64,000 nucleotides of DNA from positions 2,557-66,556 of the forward strand of contig CAZIZK010000002.1 of assembly GCA_964544225.1 (NCBI GenBank), given 5' to 3'. The stretch comes from an uncultured Candidatus Saccharibacteria bacterium (lineage in GTDB: Bacteria > Patescibacteriota > Minisyncoccia > Phycocordibacterales > UBA9973). Under the pieces are notes generated by a model. It was not told where the DNA came from. It saw nothing but the letters and a program-made list of their open reading frames with translations, and ran no database searches. The translations under genes and the position numbers were made by a program. Positions 47,924 through 56,597 of this stretch are shown piece after piece (the first letter of the stretch is position 1; each line of letters begins with the position of its first letter).

Positions 47924-49231
47924 ATGAAAAGCTTAAAACAAAATTTCAAAAATATAATAGTTCGTATCATTACTTGGCAAGCCAAGATGGTATTAAAAAG
48001 ATACAATCCAAAGATAGTAGCTATTACTGGATCTGTGGGCAAGACTTCTACAAAGGATGCTGTGTATACCGTATTGTCACATTTCTACACAGTGCGTAAG
48101 AGTGAAAAGAGCTTCAATAGCGAGATAGGCCTACCCTTGACCATACTTGGCTTTCCAAATGGGTGGAGCAATCCATTTGTATGGATCGACAATATTTTCC
48201 GAGGATTTTTGCTTTTGTTATGGAAACATGAATATCCAGAATACCTGGTATTGGAAATAGGTGCAGGTAAGCCAAACGATATTAAAAGTGTATCAAAGTG
48301 GCTTAAAACCGACTTTGTAATACTCACACGCTTCCCAGATATGCCAGTGCATGTAGAGTTCTTTAAAGACAAGGATCATGTAATAGAGGAGAAGACATCT
48401 CTTGTGTACTCACTAAAGAAGGATGGAGTATTGATACTCAATCACGATGATAAAGAAGTCTACAATGTTCACCACAAGGTGAAGAACCGATCTGTATCAT
48501 TTGGCTTCAATGAACATGCTACATATAAAGCTTCGTATCCGAATACATCTGTACACAGTGCGGGCACTCCATCAGTAACACTGGGTATGAACTTCAAGCT
48601 CGAGTATGGTGGCAATACTTTCCCTGTATCGATGGACCATATCATAGGTATGAATCATGTATATTCAGGACTTGCCGCTATAGCTATCGCCATTGAAAGT
48701 GGGGCAGATATACTAGCATCAGTGAGTGCTATATCTGAATACCGTACTCCACCAGGCCGACTGTCTGTTATCGAAGGTGCTAACAATAGTACATTGATTG
48801 ATGATACATACAATTCATCGCCAGTAGCTACAGAAGCCGCATTGGAAGTATTGAAGTCATTGGAGGGGAAGAGGAAGATTGCGGTCCTTGGTGACATGCT
48901 CGAGCTTGGTAAATTGACCGAAGAAGCTCATAAAAATATTGGAAAGATGGTAGCCGGTATCGCTGACATATTGATAGTGGTAGGTCCACGTGCACGGTTC
49001 ATAGCCGAAGGTGCCAATGATGATGGATTCCCGATAAAGGAGACTTATGCATTCGACAGCTCTGTGACTTGTGGTAAGTTCCTGTCGGCTATGATCGAAC
49101 CATCTGATGTGATACTTATGAAAGGGTCCCAAGGTACCCGCATGGAAAAAGCCGTAAAAATGATAATGGCAAACCCCGACGACGCCCCGAAGCTTTTGTG
49201 CAGGCAAGAGAAGGAATGGTTGAAAAAGTAA
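47924..49231 (+). CDS. murF: UDP-N-acetylmuramoyl-tripeptide--D-alanyl-D-alanine ligase
   Basis: Mur ligase P-loop IAITGSVGKTSTK. 435 aa. Confidence 0.9.
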   Translation: MKSLKQNFKNIIVRIITWQAKMVLKRYNPKIVAITGSVGKTSTKDAVYTVLSHFYTVRKSEKSFNSEIGLPLTILGFPNGWSNPFVWIDNIFRGFLLLLWKHEYPEYLVLEIGAGKPNDIKSVSKWLKTDFVILTRFPDMPVHVEFFKDKDHVIEEKTSLVYSLKKDGVLILNHDDKEVYNVHHKVKNRSVSFGFNEHATYKASYPNTSVHSAGTPSVTLGMNFKLEYGGNTFPVSMDHIIGMNHVYSGLAAIAIAIESGADILASVSAISEYRTPPGRLSVIEGANNSTLIDDTYNSSPVATEAALEVLKSLEGKRKIAVLGDMLELGKLTEEAHKNIGKMVAGIADILIVVGPRARFIAEGANDDGFPIKETYAFDSSVTCGKFLSAMIEPSDVILMKGSQGTRMEKAVKMIMANPDDAPKLLCRQEKEWLKK

Positions 49232-49296
49232 TTTGTAAAAGTTGATTTTTTATGGTATTTTAGTTTTATATTCGGCATGCTTTTTGTGTGCCCAAT

Positions 49297-49368
49297 GGCC
49301 CTATCGTCTAACGGTTAGGACACATCCTTCTCAAGGATGGAATCAGAGTTCGATTCTCTGTAGGGTCA
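49297..49368 (+). tRNA. tRNA-Glu (anticodon CTC); the encoded 3' CCA is displaced by the inserted element
   Basis: Hand-folded. Acceptor GGCCCTA/TAGGGTC, D-arm TCGTCTAACGGTTAGGAC, anticodon stem CATCC/GGATG with loop TTCTCAA, T-arm CAGAG-TTCGATT-CTCTG, discriminator A. Confidence 0.85.
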
Positions 49369-50894
49369 CAAACTGAAACTGCATTCGCGGAAAGTCCCAA
49401 ATGCGGGCGCGCCGAAGGCGCGCTGTATGGAGAGAGCAGGAATTCTGCATTGCGGGCGCGGGCGAATTCGGTGGGCGGGCAAAATGAGACAGAGACGGAC
49501 TTGTCCCGCAATTGCGAGTTCGTTCCAATTTTTTTGAAATAGTCACGAATTTCAAAAAAATTATCCGTGGATTGCAATTGCGTGGCTTTTTTCATATCCA
49601 AAATCCATTCTCGCAAGGGTTCGACCCAATTCTTTTTCTCTGCTCGGGCGGAGTCCATTTTTTGAGAGAGAGACACTTTTTGTTTCAAAAGCTCGTTTTT
49701 CTTCAAAATATAGTTTTCTTTCGGTATATCGCCGTCTAAATATAAACTGACCAACTCATCGAGCTTTTGTTCTGTCTCTCGCTCATTTTCCTTAATCCGC
49801 CCGAGCATACTTCCCGACGAGGATTTTTCACTTTTGTCCCATTCGTCAACTTTAGATAACATATAATCTGTCCACTCGTCGGGAAGTGCGATTTGTTGAA
49901 GCCGTTCTTTTAATTGCAAGACGACTACATCTTCTCGCAAATATTTTTGGTCACAATTTCCTTTCTTTTTTGTACAACGATAATAGCGATACCGAACGCC
50001 CATTTTTCCCGTCGTCCATTGAGCAGTTATCATACTGTCGCATTCTCCGCAACGAAAAAGACCTGTGAAAGGAAAATTGTGACTTTTCTTTGATTTGCGA
50101 GGATGAGATCGTTCTTGCAATCTTTTCTGTACGGCTTCGAATAAATCGTGGGAAAGAATTGGCGCAAAGCTTCCGGGGAAATATTCGTTGTAATGTTTCG
50201 TTAATCCTAAATATGCTTTGTTGGATAGAATGCGAGATACGGAAGCTTTGCTAAGTGGCGTTCCATTTTTCTGACATACTCCATGATCCGCCAAAAACTT
50301 TCCCATAGATTCAAAACCGTGGTTACCTTTTACATATTCTTCAAAAGCGCGGACGATAATTTTAGATTTTACAATATCAGGTTCAATATTTCTCGTTTTC
50401 GGATTATTGAAATACCCAAACGGCGCTTTTGTTAGCCACTCACCACGGCGAAGTTTTTGGCGGATTCCACGCTCAACATTTTGCTTTAAATTGTCAGAAT
50501 AATATTTAGATTGTCCGAACGCCACTTGTAACATGAATAGCCCTTGCGGGGTTGGTTCAAACCAAAATGTCGGAAAACGCAAAGAAATGATTTTGGTCGT
50601 GTCTACGGCGTAGATGATGCGCCCTCCATCAACGCTATTTCTCGCTAGTCGGTCAGGATGCCAAGCCAGAATACCAGCACCATTCATATTTTCAATGCGG
50701 GACATCATCTCGCCAAATTTTTCACGACCAGGTTTCTTTGCGCTTTTCGACTCTGTAAATTCTCCAAGAATTTGCAGATTTTCTTTACGCGCGAATTCTC
50801 GTAACTCAAAAAGTTGTGCCTCGATAGACATGATTTGCTTGTCATCATCCTCGGTACTTTTTCGCGCGTATAGAAAATATTTTGGTTTGATCAT
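49308..50894 (-). CDS. Large serine recombinase (resolvase domain + recombinase domain + zinc ribbon)
   Basis: N-terminal catalytic region YARKSTEDD with the Ser nucleophile, recombinase domain, C-x2-C...C ribbon (CGECDS..YYRC), coiled-coil. The last roughly 60 codons run through the GC-rich repeat and the tRNA, so the true C-terminus is uncertain. Confidence 0.8.
   Translation of the reverse strand: MIKPKYFLYARKSTEDDDKQIMSIEAQLFELREFARKENLQILGEFTESKSAKKPGREKFGEMMSRIENMNGAGILAWHPDRLARNSVDGGRIIYAVDTTKIISLRFPTFWFEPTPQGLFMLQVAFGQSKYYSDNLKQNVERGIRQKLRRGEWLTKAPFGYFNNPKTRNIEPDIVKSKIIVRAFEEYVKGNHGFESMGKFLADHGVCQKNGTPLSKASVSRILSNKAYLGLTKHYNEYFPGSFAPILSHDLFEAVQKRLQERSHPRKSKKSHNFPFTGLFRCGECDSMITAQWTTGKMGVRYRYYRCTKKKGNCDQKYLREDVVVLQLKERLQQIALPDEWTDYMLSKVDEWDKSEKSSSGSMLGRIKENERETEQKLDELVSLYLDGDIPKENYILKKNELLKQKVSLSQKMDSARAEKKNWVEPLREWILDMKKATQLQSTDNFFEIRDYFKKIGTNSQLRDKSVSVSFCPPTEFARARNAEFLLSPYSAPSARPHLGLSANAVSVCDPTENRTLIPSLRRMCPNR
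49366..49480. repeat. IRa, a 115-bp GC-rich repeat and the P' arm of the integrated att site
   Basis: Exact reverse complement of 50953..51067. Confidence 0.85.
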
Positions 50895-50952
50895 ATATGT
50901 TTTTGGATTATGAAAAAAGAATAGTCCGTTCTTGTCTCATTTCTTGCTTTCC

Positions 50953-51067
50953 GCCCGCCCACCGAATTCGCCCGCGCCCGCAATGCAGAATTCCTGCTCT
51001 CTCCATACAGCGCGCCTTCGGCGCGCCCGCATTTGGGACTTTCCGCGAATGCAGTTTCAGTTTGTGA
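50953..51067. repeat. IRa', an inverted copy of IRa and the first part of the intact internal 400-bp block
   Basis: Exact reverse complement of 49366..49480. Contiguous with IRb. Confidence 0.85.
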
Positions 51068-51351
51068 ACTAATTATATCATTTGCGCGAACTTTTTTCCA
51101 AACAAATGACTAATCGCACATCCGTGCGCTGAAGCGCCTCTGTGCGAAGCACAGAGCTTTCCCAAAGGGAAAGTACGGATATGCGAATACAATGCGGACT
51201 TGGTTTTGCGAAAGCAATTTTCTGGGGAAAGGATTTCGCAAAACCTCGGCTACTAATTTTTTTTGAAATTCGGCGGGACTTTGGATTTGGATTCCGCGCG
51301 CAGGAGGGGTCTGGGGAGGAATGCGCGCGGAGCTTTTTTGGGCGGGGGCTA
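51064..51351. repeat. IRb, a 288-bp GC-rich multi-hairpin repeat
   Basis: Exact reverse complement of 54687..54983 over every segment I compared. Contains hairpins GCGC-TGAA-GCGC, CTCTGTGC-GAA-GCACAGAG, CTTTCCC-AAA-GGGAAAG, and a 12-bp stem GGTTTTGCGAAA/TTTCGCAAAACC. Confidence 0.85.
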
Positions 51352-51586
51352 TGGATAAATTTAAACCAAAATGCTAAACTTATTTGACAATTAAATATGT
51401 TGCCTAAACCAAAAGCTTCGCTTTTGGCATGGCGAAAAACCCGATGAAAGATAAAGAACTCCTAGTCAGAGTTCGCCTTTCATCGGGTCGTGCGGGGAAA
51501 CCCGCATGGGTGGTCGCAAGACTGCCGAGCTGGCTAGGAGCTTTTTGTAAAACTAGCGAACCATTATTAGTAAAAATTATAAATTT

Positions 51587-51820
51587 ATGAAAAAGAAAAA
51601 TAAAGGTAAAAATGTACTAGGAATTATTTGTTTATTGTTTGCAATAGGATCTTTGACCCAGCCAAATTTTGGTTTTGCTCCGCTTGATAGTGCATTTTCA
51701 TTTGGTCAAGATATTGTTCCAACATTAGCGTTTGTTGGTAGTTTTTGGTTTATATATGACATGATTAAAAATCGTGGAAATAAATCGCAAACAGAAACTC
51801 CAAAAGTAGAAAATAATTAA
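51587..51820 (+). CDS. Small two-TM membrane protein (77 aa), cargo gene 1
   Basis: Two hydrophobic helices. First gene after IRb. Stop is 1 nt before the next start. Confidence 0.45.
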   Translation: MKKKNKGKNVLGIICLLFAIGSLTQPNFGFAPLDSAFSFGQDIVPTLAFVGSFWFIYDMIKNRGNKSQTETPKVENN

Positions 51821-51821
51821 T

Positions 51822-52622
51822 ATGGAGAACGAAAATAAAAAAGAAGAAGTTGGTAGAAATGTTCCCAAAAGACTAAAAGAGCTTTTCATCATGATTGCTC
51901 CTTTTGTTTTGGTGCTTCTTGTCGGATCGTTTTATGCTTCTCACAAACAGAGTCAACAATTAACGAGCGAATTTAAAACTGCTTTGTCTGGTCAAAGTGG
52001 GAGCGGTCAATATTCTGAAGTATTAAATCAAGTTTTTAGTTATTACAAAAGCCAAAGTGCAATTGAATTTCCTTACTCTCATGAGCTAGATAACTCAGAT
52101 ATGTTGGAAATGAAAAGTTTTGAATCGAAAGATTCTATCAATCAAATCAGTGGAATCCTTAAAAATACTCTCACAGAACTTGATTCTTATGACTCAAAAA
52201 TGAATGAAATAATTCAAGGAGCTAGATCAATTATTCAGAATAGTAATTTATCTCAATCGGAAAAAGACGAAGCTCTTGCTGGTTTCGACAAGTCATTTGA
52301 AGATCAAACATCACAGGACCTGGGCAGTAAAAGAATTGTTGCCATGAGAAATCTCTATGAAAAAGTTTTAACACTTTATGAATTTATGTTGGCAAATTTT
52401 GATGACTATCAAATAAAGACCAATGATTCAGGAAATCAGCAAGTGTACTTCTATACTGATAGTAATATAACCAGATACAATCAAATTTCTGCTGATGTTC
52501 AAAAACTTTCTATAGAATTTCAGAAAGCTAATGATGAATTTATTGCATACAAAAATAAAAATTTCAAAAGTAGTGGTTTAGATATAAACGCGACTGATGT
52601 TCAAAGTTATTTTAATCAATAA
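51822..52622 (+). CDS. Membrane-anchored protein of unknown function (266 aa), cargo gene 2
   Basis: N-terminal TM (IMIAPFVLVLLVGSFYA) followed by a polar Ser/Gln/Asn-rich domain. Confidence 0.55.
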   Translation: MENENKKEEVGRNVPKRLKELFIMIAPFVLVLLVGSFYASHKQSQQLTSEFKTALSGQSGSGQYSEVLNQVFSYYKSQSAIEFPYSHELDNSDMLEMKSFESKDSINQISGILKNTLTELDSYDSKMNEIIQGARSIIQNSNLSQSEKDEALAGFDKSFEDQTSQDLGSKRIVAMRNLYEKVLTLYEFMLANFDDYQIKTNDSGNQQVYFYTDSNITRYNQISADVQKLSIEFQKANDEFIAYKNKNFKSSGLDINATDVQSYFNQ

Positions 52623-52690
52623 ACCTTTACTTTTTAGGTTAAAGTGGTAGAATAGACTTGTTGCGAAGTGTATAGCTTAGCTATACACTT

Positions 52691-54250
52691 TTGCTTTTTA
52701 TGGCTAGATACAATGTCTATAAAATTAAAGATGGGCAAGTTAATGAACTACAAACTCATTTAACCAAAGACCGTAAATATAAATTGGCGGATAGTTTTTC
52801 ATCGCATGGTTATCAAGTTTATACATATTTTGCTGGACCCGATTCAACCGATATGTGGTGGCTTGAACAATACGGACAACATTTTCCAGAACATACGGAC
52901 AAACATAATCAGATATATTCAGGTGCAGTTGTGGCAAATAATACAAGTAAAAAATCTGGCTACATAATCCCACTTGGAAAAACACATTTTTATATTCAAA
53001 ATTTTATTGAAATCAATTTTGGTTTGGAATTAGCGGAAAGGATTGCAGATGAAAAACAGACCAAAATGAAAAGTCTTAAAAATTTTGGCGGGAAAACCAG
53101 TAAGTCCCTTACAAGTTACATTTCAGGATCAAATCTATTATTCTCTAGTGGTGAATCTGCCGAATATTTAAAGCTGAAAGCTCAAAATAAAGAAGCATGG
53201 GGTGATTCATTTGTTCATTTTGGAAGTAGTGTTCAGTTTAATAGTCTTGAAATTGAGCCAGATGATTTGGGTGTTTTGCTCTCAAATATTGATTCTGCGG
53301 TGAAAGGAAAGAAAATATTACACCTTCCGTTAATGAAAGAAATAAAAGAGCCAGCATTGCTCGTACAGTTATATTCAAATCTTGCTGAAAAAATCTTAAA
53401 TGCGGATGACAGTATTGGTATTCTTGATTACGAAATATATGGAGTAGACTTTGTATTTTCTCAACAGACTCATATCAAACTTAAATGTGAGGGTGTTTAT
53501 TCCGACCAATTACCACAGCTTACATTAGAAAATATTATTACGTTCGTAAATGACAACAGTATAGACTTGAAAGATTGCTTGCAGAAAATAAAAGTCCAGT
53601 TTTTAGTGGACAGCGAATCAAAGTATACTGTTCCGCTATTACAACTTATTGAATATTACGGCGATGACAAGAGCTTTTTATATAAGGGTAAGTGGTTTTA
53701 TTTCAATGAAAGCTTTATTGAAAGTTTACATAATGCTCTGACTAAAGTCGAGGTTAGTGAATTTGGCAAAGCTTTTTCAGAAAGCGAATTTGAGGCTTGG
53801 CAAAAAACAAATAAAAATAAAGTAAATTACCGCGAGAGGTTTGTTATTGAGAAAATACACGAAGAATCAAAATTTGAAATTTTAGATCGAGATTTAGACT
53901 ATCTTGGTGTTGGAGATAAAAAATATCAACTTGAAATTGGTGATCTTTATGACCAAAAAAACAAAAGTTTATATGTCGTTAAAATTGGTAGTCCTAGTGA
54001 TTTTGGCTATGCTTTTGATCAGACATTTACCCTGCTTAGTAATGTAAAAGGTCAAAAGTATATTAGTACTGGCGGCAAAGAATATCCTATTGAAACAGTG
54101 AACGTTTTGATTATTTTTCGCACGAATAGAAAATTAAAGGATGCAACTGATACTAAGTCTTTAATTTTTGAAATAAAACTAAATGAATTACAAAAAATAG
54201 CTTTTGAAAAAAATATTAAATTGAATTTAACTTTTACAACTATACTTTAA
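52691..54250 (+). CDS. 519-aa soluble protein of unknown function, cargo gene 3 (possible sporadically distributed defence-island-type protein)
   Basis: Long uninterrupted ORF with AT-rich codon usage typical of the host. No motif that I can name with confidence. Confidence 0.55.
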   Translation: MLFMARYNVYKIKDGQVNELQTHLTKDRKYKLADSFSSHGYQVYTYFAGPDSTDMWWLEQYGQHFPEHTDKHNQIYSGAVVANNTSKKSGYIIPLGKTHFYIQNFIEINFGLELAERIADEKQTKMKSLKNFGGKTSKSLTSYISGSNLLFSSGESAEYLKLKAQNKEAWGDSFVHFGSSVQFNSLEIEPDDLGVLLSNIDSAVKGKKILHLPLMKEIKEPALLVQLYSNLAEKILNADDSIGILDYEIYGVDFVFSQQTHIKLKCEGVYSDQLPQLTLENIITFVNDNSIDLKDCLQKIKVQFLVDSESKYTVPLLQLIEYYGDDKSFLYKGKWFYFNESFIESLHNALTKVEVSEFGKAFSESEFEAWQKTNKNKVNYRERFVIEKIHEESKFEILDRDLDYLGVGDKKYQLEIGDLYDQKNKSLYVVKIGSPSDFGYAFDQTFTLLSNVKGQKYISTGGKEYPIETVNVLIIFRTNRKLKDATDTKSLIFEIKLNELQKIAFEKNIKLNLTFTTIL

Positions 54251-54686
54251 TTTCAAGGGAGCGTTCCCCATGCGCGCACGGGTGGGCAAAGTGTCCGCGT
54301 GTACTCACGCGGACAAAGGGGCAAGCATGTATTCCGCCTCGGGCATTTCCGCTATGAGCGTCCATGGCTAAAGGATGAGCGCCGAAGTAATATAACTCAC
54401 AGAAGTTTAGTAGCGAAAGCGACACCACGAACATAAATATGCAAAACGTAGAGTGGGGATGGCGAGGGCGGAACTTCTCGCGAGTACTCTCTGCGAGAAG
54501 TAGCCCGACCCGGGGAGAGGAAACTTCCTCTCCCCAAGAAGCGCGGGCTCCTGCCCGCACGTAGGCACCTAGGCGCGAGTAGCCATAGCGGAAATGCCCG
54601 AGGCGGATGCCGAGGGTGCATCCCCTTTAGACTTGGACAACCACATAGCAAAAGAAATGACCGAGAAAATTTTAATCCTGTTGTTT
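54251..54686. other. GC-rich, hairpin-dense non-coding segment (candidate structured RNA or recombination accessory region)
   Basis: Perfect hairpins CCGCGTG-TACT-CACGCGG and GAGAGGAA-AC-TTCCTCTC, a 23-bp long-range inverted repeat (54333-54355 with 54586-54608), and an imperfect CTTCTCGCGAG..CTCTGCGAGAAG palindrome. Its GC content far exceeds the surrounding genes. Confidence 0.3.
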
Positions 54687-54983
54687 CTGAATTTTTAGCC
54701 CCCGCCCAAAAAAGCTCCGCGCGCATTCCTCCCCAGACCCCTCCTGCGCGCGGAATCCAAATCCAAAGTCCCGCCGAATTTCAAAAAAAATTAGTAGCCG
54801 AGGTTTTGCGAAATCCTTTCCCCAGAAAATTGCTTTCGCAAAACCAAGTCCGCATTGTATTCGCATATCCGTACTTTCCCTTTGGGAAAGCTCTGTGCTT
54901 CGCACAGAGGCGCTTCAGCGCACGGATGTGCGATTAGTCATTTGTTTGGAAAAAAGTTCGCGCAAATGATATAATTAGTTCAC
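54687..54983. repeat. IRb', an inverted copy of IRb at the right end of the element
   Basis: Reverse complement of 51064..51351. Ends with TCAC at 54980-54983. Confidence 0.85.
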
Positions 54984-54985
54984 CA

Positions 54986-55468
54986 ATGCAAATTACTAAT
55001 TTTGAAAATCTTGTAGATAAAGATAAGAATCAGGTTTTTGTCTTTTATTGTCCAGCTTACATACCTGTTAATTTTGCTATACACCCTTGGTTCTTGGTAA
55101 ATAGAAAAGGGGTACTTTCCAGATATGAAATTTTTAACATTAAAAATTTTCAAGCAGATAATGAGGGTTTTATAAATATTGGCTATTGGTACAAAAATGG
55201 GTTGCCTACATATAGTGGCATACAGGTTTTTCCATATAGTAAAAAGTATCATTGGAATGCAAAGTTACTAGGTGTTGTTGATGGTGATGATACAAAAGTG
55301 CTGGAAATGATCGAGTTAATTGAGAATTCGGATAAGCAATATCCCCATATACAAACTTATCGTTTACTTGGGCCCAATAGCAATACTTATGTAAATTGGA
55401 TACTAAGTAAATTCCCAGAATTTAAGATCAAACTCCCACTCGGTGCAATAGGTAAGAATTATAAATAA
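54986..55468 (+). CDS. Hypothetical 160-aa protein
   Basis: ATG lies 3 nt past the element boundary. No recognisable motif. Confidence 0.5.
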   Translation: MQITNFENLVDKDKNQVFVFYCPAYIPVNFAIHPWFLVNRKGVLSRYEIFNIKNFQADNEGFINIGYWYKNGLPTYSGIQVFPYSKKYHWNAKLLGVVDGDDTKVLEMIELIENSDKQYPHIQTYRLLGPNSNTYVNWILSKFPEFKIKLPLGAIGKNYK

Positions 55469-55538
55469 AATACCCCATAGGCAAGACCTATGGGGTATTT
55501 TCTGTATTTGACTACTTCCACCCCAAATGGTATTCTGA

Positions 55539-56597
55539 GTGCAAACAAAATTAAATAAAATAGTTATGATGAACAAAGATCAATTCGACTTTGAGATTAT
55601 TGCAGGTTCTTCTTGCAAAGCAATAGCAAAAAAAATTGCTAAAGCATTGGGTAAAAAACTTTTTGATTGTAAAATCGGAAGGTTCTCAAATGGTGAACCG
55701 GACGTAGATTTGCAAAAAAGCGTGCGTGGTAAAACAATTTTCTTTATCCAGACTTCACTCACCGGTAACGGTAAAATGGGTGATGGTATGATGGAGACAC
55801 GTGCTGTGGCAGATTCTTTAGTCCGAGCTTCTGTTGGTAAAATGGTTCTAATACAACTAAACTTTCCAATGGCAAGGCAAGACAGAAGGGAGCCGAATCC
55901 AAAGTCTAAAGGGCTTAAACCCAAAAGACGTCCGATTTCGGCACGAATTGCTGCAGATTTCTTCACCGAGTGTGGTTTTAACGGCGTTGTAACAATGCAT
56001 TTGCATTCAGGACAGATTGAGGGTTTCTTTGATGCAAGGAAGTGTGTTATAGACAATGTAAACCCAGCTTCTATTTTTATTAAATATCTTCATGATGAAA
56101 AAATCTTGAATGGTAGTAATGAAAATACAATGCTAGTATCTCCCGATGTAGGAGGTGCAACTTTTGTGGCTTTGCTTTCAGACATTTTAAATCTACCGCC
56201 TTATGCAATTATTGATAAGCGTAGAACTGGACCAGGTAAGAGTGAAGTGATGAATATTATTGGTAGTGTTGCCGGTAAGGATTGTATACTTTGGGATGAC
56301 ATGGTAGATTCCGGTGGAACTGCTGCAACTGCTTGTAAAAAGGTTTTGGATGAAGGAGCAAATAAAGTTATCTTGATGGCTACTCATGCTGTTTTGTCTG
56401 GTAAAGCTGTAACCAATCTGTTGAATTCAAAATTCAGCAAAATCATTTTTACTAACACTTTGCCACTACCAGCTAAGCTTAAAAAAAATAGCCGGTTTGT
56501 CCAACTGTCTGTTGCACCCATGCTAGCAGATATTATTGCAAATATATCCAACGATGAATCGCTGGAAGAAATTGTAAGAATAAACACAGAAGAATAA
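55539..56597 (+). CDS. prs: Ribose-phosphate pyrophosphokinase
   Basis: N-terminal Prs fold (FSNGEPDV..SVRGKTIFFIQ) and PRPP-binding loop (DCILWDDMVDSGGT). Start could be Met 55566. Confidence 0.8.
   Translation: MQTKLNKIVMMNKDQFDFEIIAGSSCKAIAKKIAKALGKKLFDCKIGRFSNGEPDVDLQKSVRGKTIFFIQTSLTGNGKMGDGMMETRAVADSLVRASVGKMVLIQLNFPMARQDRREPNPKSKGLKPKRRPISARIAADFFTECGFNGVVTMHLHSGQIEGFFDARKCVIDNVNPASIFIKYLHDEKILNGSNENTMLVSPDVGGATFVALLSDILNLPPYAIIDKRRTGPGKSEVMNIIGSVAGKDCILWDDMVDSGGTAATACKKVLDEGANKVILMATHAVLSGKAVTNLLNSKFSKIIFTNTLPLPAKLKKNSRFVQLSVAPMLADIIANISNDESLEEIVRINTEE

Follow-up and report, generated by a model that had tools for sequence, protein, structure and literature searches.

The window analysed here, a 64,000-nt stretch of contig CAZIZK010000002.1 (assembly GCA_964544225.1) from an uncultured Candidatus Saccharibacteria bacterium, contains a 5.6-kb integrative element (positions 49366-54983). 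Its insertion, at the 3' end of a tRNA-Glu(CTC) gene, was the work of a large serine recombinase (LSR). The crossover lies inside an invariant CAC triplet, which corresponds to C72-A73-C74 of the tRNA. The element carries its attachment region (attP) twice: once split between its two ends, and once intact and inverted (block X), directly upstream of the recombinase gene. The enzyme and the logic of its sites are those of the known serine integrases, and the conserved, inverted second attP region is undescribed in the searched literature.

Architecture of the Integrated Element

The arrangement is made up of the following features, with coordinates referring to the window.

49297-49369, + strand: tRNA-Glu(CTC), the integration target (Rfam tRNA, 59.9 bits; ARAGORN; reading of the junction)
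49308-50894, - strand: large serine recombinase, 528 amino acids (aa) as integrated (Pfam; PDB phmmer; open reading frame (ORF) read-out)
49366-49480, no strand assigned: A', left-end copy of the first 115 nt of X, forming the P' arm of attL (115/115 reverse-complement identity)
50895-50952, - strand: rest of the recombinase 5' leader, between the internal A and the start codon, with weak inverted similarity to the coding sequence just inside A'
50953-51351, no strand assigned: block X, intact internal inverted copy of the attP region (repeat comparison), composed of A (50953-51067), the core GTGA (51064-51067), and B (51064-51351)
54696-54983, no strand assigned: B', right-end copy of the last 288 nt of X, forming the P arm of attR (288/288 identity)

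By direct string comparison, positions 50953-51067 are the reverse complement of 49366-49480 over all 115 nt, and positions 51064-51351 that of 54696-54983 over all 288 nt. A repeat search gives the same two inverted pairs, with a spacing between the arms of 1472 nt on the recombinase side and 3344 nt on the cargo side; in this search, the long arm extends to 291 nt only when one mismatch is tolerated (tcacCAA versus tcacAAA). A' and B' do not match each other, each pairing with X alone, and the identity ends sharply on all four sides of the repeats. Perfect repeats of 115 and 288 nt within 64 kb are not explicable by chance. The preliminary description of this DNA had reported a block present once whole and once split, in inverted orientation, at the ends of an element whose short arm holds the recombinase gene and whose long arm holds the cargo. 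The exact identities bear this out, as does the self-alignment that it had proposed as a check, in which both inverted pairs are recovered. The 4-nt overlap that it placed at the split is exactly GTGA in X (51064-51067) and TCAC at both element ends (49366-49369 and 54980-54983); the start of the right-end copy, given there as 54687, is corrected to 54696. Four points go beyond that description: the identity of the target as tRNA-Glu, the position of X as the upstream region of the recombinase gene with a promoter-like site, the coding nature of the 115-nt part at the 3' end of this gene, and the existence of a family defined by the layout.

The left core, TCAC, consists of the last four bases of tRNA-Glu (U71-C72-A73-C74), and the element reads tRNA/A' - recombinase(-) - A/B - LOOT RNA - three cargo genes - GC-rich block - B'/host flank. 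The reconstructed attB is ...gagttcgattctctgtagggTCACcaatgc..., and the reconstructed attP is ...aagttcgcgcaaatgatataattagtTCACaaactgaaactgc...; the internal copy matches the latter letter for letter, arms and core included, in inverted orientation. This agrees with two earlier proposals, namely that the end pieces of the TCAC-bounded element at the tRNA 3' end would rebuild an inverted X in the excised circle, and that the internal copy is an uncut site. In such a circle, as follows from the sequence, the recombinase gene would be bracketed by two inverted attP copies of ~400 bp. TCAC is the sole sequence common to attL, attR, and the reconstructed attB and attP, as is typical of the short sites of LSRs. 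Insertion in the 3' part of a tRNA or tmRNA gene, which also marks tDNA islands, is found here; the tyrosine integrase and displaced tRNA fragment of the Islander type are not, the far-end repeat being only 4 nt long.

The recombinase contains, in order, the domains Resolvase PF00239 (8.6e-22), Recombinase PF07508 (5.7e-13), and Zn_ribbon_recom PF13408 (1.5e-10), with a YARKST motif at its N-terminus. Its nearest solved structure is SPbeta SprA/YokA (residues 9-394 aligned by PDB phmmer), and it scores under the cut-offs of the named Ccr and XisF families. Judging from these domains and from the sites, it is a candidate for LSR catalysis, which would recombine attP with attB and excise the element as a circle. 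An invertible segment of the Hin/Gin/Cin type was considered and rejected, the enzyme being a 528-aa LSR with a zinc ribbon, the repeats 115 and 288 nt long, and the crossover located at the tRNA junction.

As regards the target itself, the CCA end is encoded at the reconstructed empty site (TCA-CCA), and the inserted gene reads TCA-CAA (49366-49372, 54980-54986), so that the tRNA would need trimming and CCA addition after insertion. A structured-RNA gene (RNase P, tmRNA, etc.) split by the insertion was also considered and rejected, since Rfam (gathering threshold; E <= 5) gives only tRNA-Glu and the LOOT RNA nearby. The searched collections contain neither an empty site nor a free circle for this strain, and the window's recombinase and the flanking DUF3750 protein are both absent from them, so that the same element is not represented in other samples there; IMG/VR contains no relative that would point to a free, virus-borne form.

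A Family of Elements with the Same Layout

Related loci from Patescibacteria (given L-numbers) were annotated for 163 cases, using P-arm and inner-A profile searches and ARAGORN. All locus and contig counts are those among the matches listed, the family being at least as large as these figures. At E <= 1e-20, 6,634 homologues are found among the 8,000 candidate proteins scored, and their hosts, among the matches listed, are Paceibacteria and other Patescibacteria. Self-comparison of the first 80 loci (L001-L080) reveals the 115-nt inverted pair around the recombinase gene in nearly all of them, with one copy ~60 nt before the start codon and the other within the 3' end of the gene. Where the upstream DNA suffices, this pair is adjoined by another, 150-290 nt in length, and the two overlap by 0-7 nt. 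The same layout is found in a chromosome-titled record, CP060229.1 (L071; A pair 98.5%, B pair 98.3%). An intact copy upstream is combined with a tRNA or tmRNA at the recombinase 3' end in 103 of the 163 loci; 26 further loci have the downstream tRNA, with an upstream side that is contig-cut or unclassified, so that a downstream tRNA or tmRNA is present in 129/163. A recombinase segment located between two tRNAs occurs in none of the 163.

The elements with both ends in view (at least 21) measure 3.4-9.2 kb. They target the tRNAs for Glu, Ala, Gly, Arg, Ile, Val, Ser, Leu, Pro, Lys, Met, and Tyr, as well as tmRNA, and recombinases 60-94% identical to that of the window occupy the same position of at least 12 tRNA species and tmRNA (L001-L162). 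Only CAC, at the crossover, and GTTCG, in the T-loop and the P arm, are shared, which suggests that the family is aimed at universal tRNA features. At one locus (L079, 4396-9598), two elements are found at neighbouring tRNAs, one of the recombinases being 40% identical.

It is hardly credible that this structure is an artefact, due to integrated and circular forms being mixed in the assembly, or that the repeats are the terminal inverted repeats of an insertion sequence (IS) or transposon. The repeats are 100% identical and many homologue contigs are just 1.7-2.7 kb in length or begin 100-400 nt ahead of the recombinase gene, which could be read in this way. Such breaks are, however, the expected product of a real repeat, and the short or broken contigs indicate that the repeats routinely break short-read assemblies, which may be the reason why the family went unnoticed. 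An assembly artefact is very unlikely, because the same layout is found in more than 100 independent assemblies, among them the chromosome-titled record. As for transposon ends, A' and B' are not mutual inverted repeats, and the junctions fall at a tRNA 3' end and a 4-nt direct repeat. An IS or transposon with terminal inverted repeats was, therefore, rejected: the ends are unlike, and insertion always takes place at the same tRNA/tmRNA position.

Identity and Origin of the Two Copies

Over the 112 nt beside the core, the median identity of the two copies is 98.2% within an element, versus 62.5% between elements. Each copy has its own partner as best match in 93 of 103 elements; 35 pairs are identical, and 71/103 are at least 95% identical. 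In the first 45 nt of A, the window's element is only 71-76% identical to its closest relatives (their recombinases being 93-94% identical), and elements with recombinases ~94% identical share only 71-78% in this part; the two copies nevertheless agree within each element. This high within-element identity, together with the sharing of the pair down to ~60% recombinase identity, indicates that the duplication is old and continually homogenised. The duplication had been described earlier as recent or actively homogenised; the second term stands (98% within versus 62% between) and the first must be abandoned. Mismatches are evenly spread (4-6%) to position 110 and rise to 25-50% thereafter.

A weak similarity extends beyond the inner end of A into the coding sequence, where the remainder of the leader is matched by imperfect inverted pairs (I8 and I9) and by the family alignment. 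This residual similarity suggests that the upstream copy originated when the end of the gene was duplicated, together with attP, in inverted orientation.

Reading Frame through the Crossover

A', the 115-nt part, is coding sequence within the 3' end of the recombinase reading frame. From there, the frame continues across the core and terminates in the antisense strand of the tRNA, giving the 528-aa protein, which ends ...VSVC-DPTENRTLIPSLRRMCPNR. Read across the A/B junction instead, the protein would have 524 aa and end ...VSVC-ELIISFARTFFQTND (...CELIISFARTFFQTND). The C-terminal tail thus depends on the integration state, since the frame runs through the crossover. Among 117 unique elements, 115 keep this frame open across A as far as the core, versus 72 and 29 for the other two frames. 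The B-type tail, with A read into B and not into a tRNA, is found in 11 of 120 database homologues, and the tRNA-encoded tail differs in length and sequence with the target.

Inverted Forms, Mosaics, and Composites

Both orientations of the recombinase segment exist. The other ARRANGEMENTS, with the tRNA upstream (tRNA/A', followed by the recombinase), is found in L066 (k127) and L081 (k141), on contigs that are both rated safe; L081 then runs through A/B into the cargo. This tRNA-upstream layout accounts for 2 of ~136 informative loci, and the reading from the recombinase into A/B also occurs in L003, L048, and L112. As the inverted forms share only 86-94% identity with their nearest relatives, what is documented is inversion on an evolutionary time scale and not a rapid switch. 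Recombinase-driven inversion and integration either way round, both proposed earlier, would yield products that could equally come from homologous recombination between the repeats. Forms with a flipped cargo are another matter: the GC-rich block, which is usually located by the outer B copy, adjoins the internal copy in L118, L013, and L122/L068, and these isomers were set aside as unsafe, as their contigs cross a repeat longer than typical assembly k-mers.

Two elements, L081 (1186-3000) and L040 (1250-2978), are mosaics, in which the recombinase body (94.4% identical to L106, 91.4% to L051) is combined with a 3' A block of another lineage. Their copies differ in lineage and core (GGACA or CCGC versus TCAC), A' and A being unlike in L081, and the swap point is the conserved 20-nt inner end of A (GCGAATTCGGTGGGCGGGC). 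Such a combination of lineages is as expected from homologous recombination between elements. A designed dual target specificity of L081 and L040 was considered and rejected, in view of the lineage swap at the inner end of A. Two composites, L082 and L080, have three P-arm copies each, with breakpoints at the core. Those of L080 (2379-9589) include a truncated attP-like remnant, and L082 (1-8625) reads A/B1 - cargo - B'1/A' - recombinase - A/B2, with an element apparently placed between attP-type sites.

A recombinase-driven inversion switch, in which the LSR would join X with X' in the circle, or attL or attR with X in the chromosome, is unlikely. The flip would swap the promoter (that of the element versus tRNA read-through) and the C-terminal tail (tRNA-antisense-encoded versus B-encoded). 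The occurrence of the segment in both orientations and the breakpoints of the composite L082, exactly at the core, are consistent with this, as is the preservation of the open frame through the crossover in nearly all elements, from which the two tails are taken as real products. Nevertheless, established LSR behaviour allows no synapsis of attP with attP or of attL with attP, the divergence of the inverted forms from their nearest relatives gives no sign of frequent switching, most contigs read through the 115-nt repeat unbroken, and the tRNA-encoded tail varies with the target in both length and sequence. A self-contained mobility switch, with the inverted internal attP as a working part and without a directionality factor, is likewise doubtful. 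Here, the recombinase segment, which spans 1.7 kb from X to the tRNA junction, would be flipped by the recombinase or by host recombination, exchanging the promoter (the one embedded in the element's attP versus tRNA read-through) and the C-terminal tail (tRNA-antisense versus the conserved, B-encoded ...FARTxF), and the resulting isoforms would favour opposite directions of recombination.

Conserved Motifs and a Promoter-Like Site in the P Arm

Block X contains one further feature of interest for its role.

51072-51101, - strand: promoter-like site TTGGAA-18-(TG)TATAAT in the P arm of the internal copy (scan and family conservation)

This site has the joint top score (10 of 12) in a scan of 49200-55600. 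It ends 8 nt before the core, is aimed through the core toward the recombinase gene, and overlaps a GTTCGnGC motif. Among 84 unique internal copies, the -35-like and -10-like positions are conserved, as are A+9 and C+10 of the P' arm; the core CAC is invariant (84/84), and GTTCGnGC (-27 to -20) almost invariant. The distance from the start of GTTCG to TCAC is 24 nt in the P arm, versus 18 nt in the tRNA, where the motif forms the T-loop. In work on the LI integrase and its attP, the site of the zinc-ribbon domain reportedly lies ~5 bp further out in attP than in attB, a displacement that the 6-bp GTTCG offset found here matches. The offset would fit a single protein reading both sites. A recombinase dimer bound at X would probably cover its own promoter; in KplE1, integrase and excisionase sites are said to overlap the intS promoter.

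Within A, a GC hairpin, GCGCGCC-GAA-GGCGCGC (49395-49425 and 51008-51038), keeps its pairing by compensatory changes across elements, the variants in the alignment being GCGCGCC/GGCGCGC, GCACGCC/GGCGTGC, and GCCCGCC/GGCGGGC. For the 115-nt leader block as a whole, no consensus RNA fold was obtained with RNAalifold, and the alignment contains just this local hairpin. On the recombinase sense strand, a T-rich run comes after this hairpin, above all in the second sequence class, which gives it the look of a terminator within the frame.

It is possible, though on balance not probable, that X is kept only as a regulatory module, as recombinase promoter and leader and as insulation of the cargo, and never serves as an attachment site. 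The hairpin and T-run of B would stop transcription into the cargo from either side, with an outward promoter, and the 5' leader, perfectly complementary to the 3' end of the same mRNA, could form a 115-bp duplex that would limit expression. The promoter-like site aimed at the recombinase gene, the hairpins and terminator-like end on the A-to-B strand of B (CCGCGCGCA...TGCGCGCGG-AGCTTTTTT), the compensated GC hairpin in A, and the lack of any recombinase segment flanked by two tRNAs among the 163 loci all argue for such a role. It leaves unexplained, however, why the whole P' arm and the core are present with every invariant position intact, and fails to account for 400 bp being identical rather than merely functional. 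The lack of a conserved overall fold of the leader block and the existence of contigs in which the tRNA and A' precede the recombinase (L066, L081) also argue against it.

Proposed Mechanism

The favoured reading, held with about even confidence, is that of a circle with two attP copies, the intact one acting as promoter, operator, and spare attP, and recombination between the copies (most simply by the host) homogenising them and occasionally flipping a segment. The downstream copy overlaps the last ~38 recombinase codons, with the other copy upstream. In the window, it is the downstream copy that was used and is thus split into A' (attL) and B' (attR), X staying whole. X would then combine the recombinase promoter and leader with a complete recombinase binding site, the hexamers lying in the P arm ~8 nt before the core; the integrated element would thereby keep the recombinase gene expressed, probably under self-repression. 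As X appears sequence-competent as a second attP, either copy could serve for integration of the circle. Exchanges between the two, in the simplest case by homologous recombination of the host, would maintain their identity by gene conversion and occasionally invert the recombinase or cargo segment. The zinc-ribbon domain would recognise GTTCG both in the T-loop of the tRNA and in the P arm, where the motif lies 6 bp further out, which would explain the use of many tRNAs and tmRNA.

Several points weigh against this reading. The support for the use of the internal attP is sequence-based, the tRNA-upstream layout is rare (2 of ~136), and inversion across A'/A would also yield it. The flipped-cargo contigs L118, L013, and L122 may be mis-joins. 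An intact attP beside an expressed integrase should be hazardous, given the other tRNA targets, and the count of 0/163 loci with the segment between two tRNAs argues for rare use of the internal site in the chromosome, or for none at all. As for the promoter, it is known as a match to the consensus, and the motif that it overlaps is better conserved than would be expected of a promoter spacer, so that recombinase binding alone may explain the conservation. Lastly, no directionality factor was found and no gene is shared by the cargo of 10 complete elements, so that this reading does not account for excision.

A fold-back attP, in which X and X' would anneal in a single-stranded form of the element (e.g., during DNA uptake) to give a 400-bp duplex attP, is very improbable. 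A precedent for the principle is CTXphi, in which a XerCD site is built from two inverted half-sites by fold-back. The copies are perfectly complementary over 400 nt in most elements (the divergent ones may be old residents), and genes for their own replication or transfer are lacking in the elements, which would suit this idea. Against it, a serine recombinase cuts both strands, and a cut dumbbell would, by this reasoning, leave two hairpin-capped chromosome ends. Moreover, single-stranded DNA cannot express the recombinase, and A' and A are unlike in L081.

Comparison with Known Systems

The enzyme shares its architecture with those of the LSR elements (phiC31, Bxb1, A118/LI, SPbeta SprA, Tn4451 TnpX, and SCCmec Ccr), which likewise have few shared crossover bases and an integrase gene beside attP. 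To our knowledge, the known LSR elements carry one attP. The family described here differs from them by the inverted second copy found family-wide, the frame through the crossover, the lack of an evident directionality factor, and a dozen-plus tRNA/tmRNA targets among close relatives.

Islander/TIGER islands and tycheposons share with it the insertion at tRNA/tmRNA 3' ends, a small variable cargo, and arrays in tRNA clusters (here, L079 and L080). Most of the tRNA/tmRNA islands depend on tyrosine integrases, and an identity block of 15-50+ bp restores their tRNA (PMC4383910); a tyrosine recombinase is present in 910 of 937 tycheposons (bioRxiv 10.1101/2020.12.28.424599). In contrast, the elements found here have a serine recombinase, an identity block of 3-6 nt, a change of CCA to CAA, and an internal inverted attP.

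Identical geometry, with an internal junction consisting of the inverted, joined termini, is found in the class E genome of herpes simplex virus (TRL-UL-IRL, IRS-US-TRS), whose two unique segments have their own inverted repeats and can give four isomers. Its biology, size, and enzymes are unrelated; in particular, concatemers are cleaved for packaging, without the site-specific integration of the present element. The yeast 2-micron plasmid carries inverted repeats with the FRT target of FLP, and its flip-flop isomers arise by inversion, which serves copy-number amplification. It too is a circle divided into two arcs by identical inverted repeats containing the recombinase target, but FLP is a tyrosine recombinase and the plasmid replicates, whereas the elements here have no replication genes. 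Engineered cassettes (MiMIC and phiC31 recombinase-mediated cassette exchange) have two inverted attP sites around a segment, as here; they are man-made and used with a donor bearing two attB sites for cassette exchange. In the archaeal virus SSV1, attP lies inside the int gene of a tyrosine integrase, which is split by integration. Integration alters the integrase frame in both cases, although only the last 15-19 codons change here, with no split.

A natural inverted attP pair was not found in the literature searched, in which the term turns up for engineered cassettes alone, and no paper found there treats Patescibacteria together with large serine recombinases. Serine integrases are valued for genome engineering, due to their simple sites and one-way reactions. 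The present family departs from the single-attP picture by an inverted second attP around the integrase gene, a frame running through its own crossover, and a dozen tRNA/tmRNA targets among close relatives, apparently recognised by the universal T-loop plus C72-A73-C74. If the internal site and the state-dependent tail are functional, integrase expression or direction could be controlled without an accessory protein, and the family would provide a compact integrase set aimed at a sequence present in every genome. The family also offers a handle on gene movement among uncultivated Patescibacteria.

Cargo, Structured RNAs, and Host Flank

The remaining features of the element and its flank are as follows.

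51401-51526, + strand: LOOT RNA (RF03000), in the cargo (88.9 bits versus a gathering threshold of 46.4)
51587-54250, + strand: cargo genes of 77 aa (hydrophobic stretches), 266 aa, and 519 aa (DUF6119) (ORFs; Pfam DUF6119, 1.8e-21)
54245-54695, + strand: GC-rich, structured RNA-like block beside B' (z = -6.7 versus shuffles; nhmmer homologues)
54946-54975, + strand: the same promoter-like site in B', pointing outward from the element
54986-55468, + strand: flanking host gene, DUF3750 (ORF and Pfam), with its ATG 3 nt past the right core

Neither PADLOC nor NCBIfam returned anything for the cargo proteins. The cargo differs in every related element and includes restriction-modification genes, a transporter-like gene, and genes of unknown function; the smallest element (L079, 3.4 kb) has one transporter-like gene. 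No gene is common to the cargo of 10 complete elements, in which small unannotated directionality factors could still be present, and no conserved cargo gene that might act as excisionase was found among them. Neither replication genes nor transfer genes were found in the element of the window or in nine other complete elements. As the cargo is unrelated between elements, the conserved parts are the recombinase and the two repeat pairs.

The LOOT RNA, a motif named for Latescibacteria, OD1, OP11, and TM7, lies just past block X and heads the cargo genes. It is absent from the nine other complete elements and was, therefore, rejected as a part of the mobility machinery. The GC-rich block (~430 nt) has homologues in at least 20 related elements (e.g., L002 49-502, L009 997-1471, L090 3904-4362, and L082 ~300-880), always in the orientation block, B', core. 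An alignment of 15 sequences shows compensatory changes in 22 of the 55 predicted pairs and a long, conserved closing stem, with G-U pairs favouring the + strand. Without a match in Rfam, the block has the look of a large structured RNA not described before, present in many, not all, of these elements.

The host genes nearby, in an AT-rich genome, encode a murF-like protein, a PRPP synthetase, and the DUF3750 protein. The promoter-like site at the right end is aimed at the DUF3750 gene, and the insertion may have put this host gene under an element promoter.

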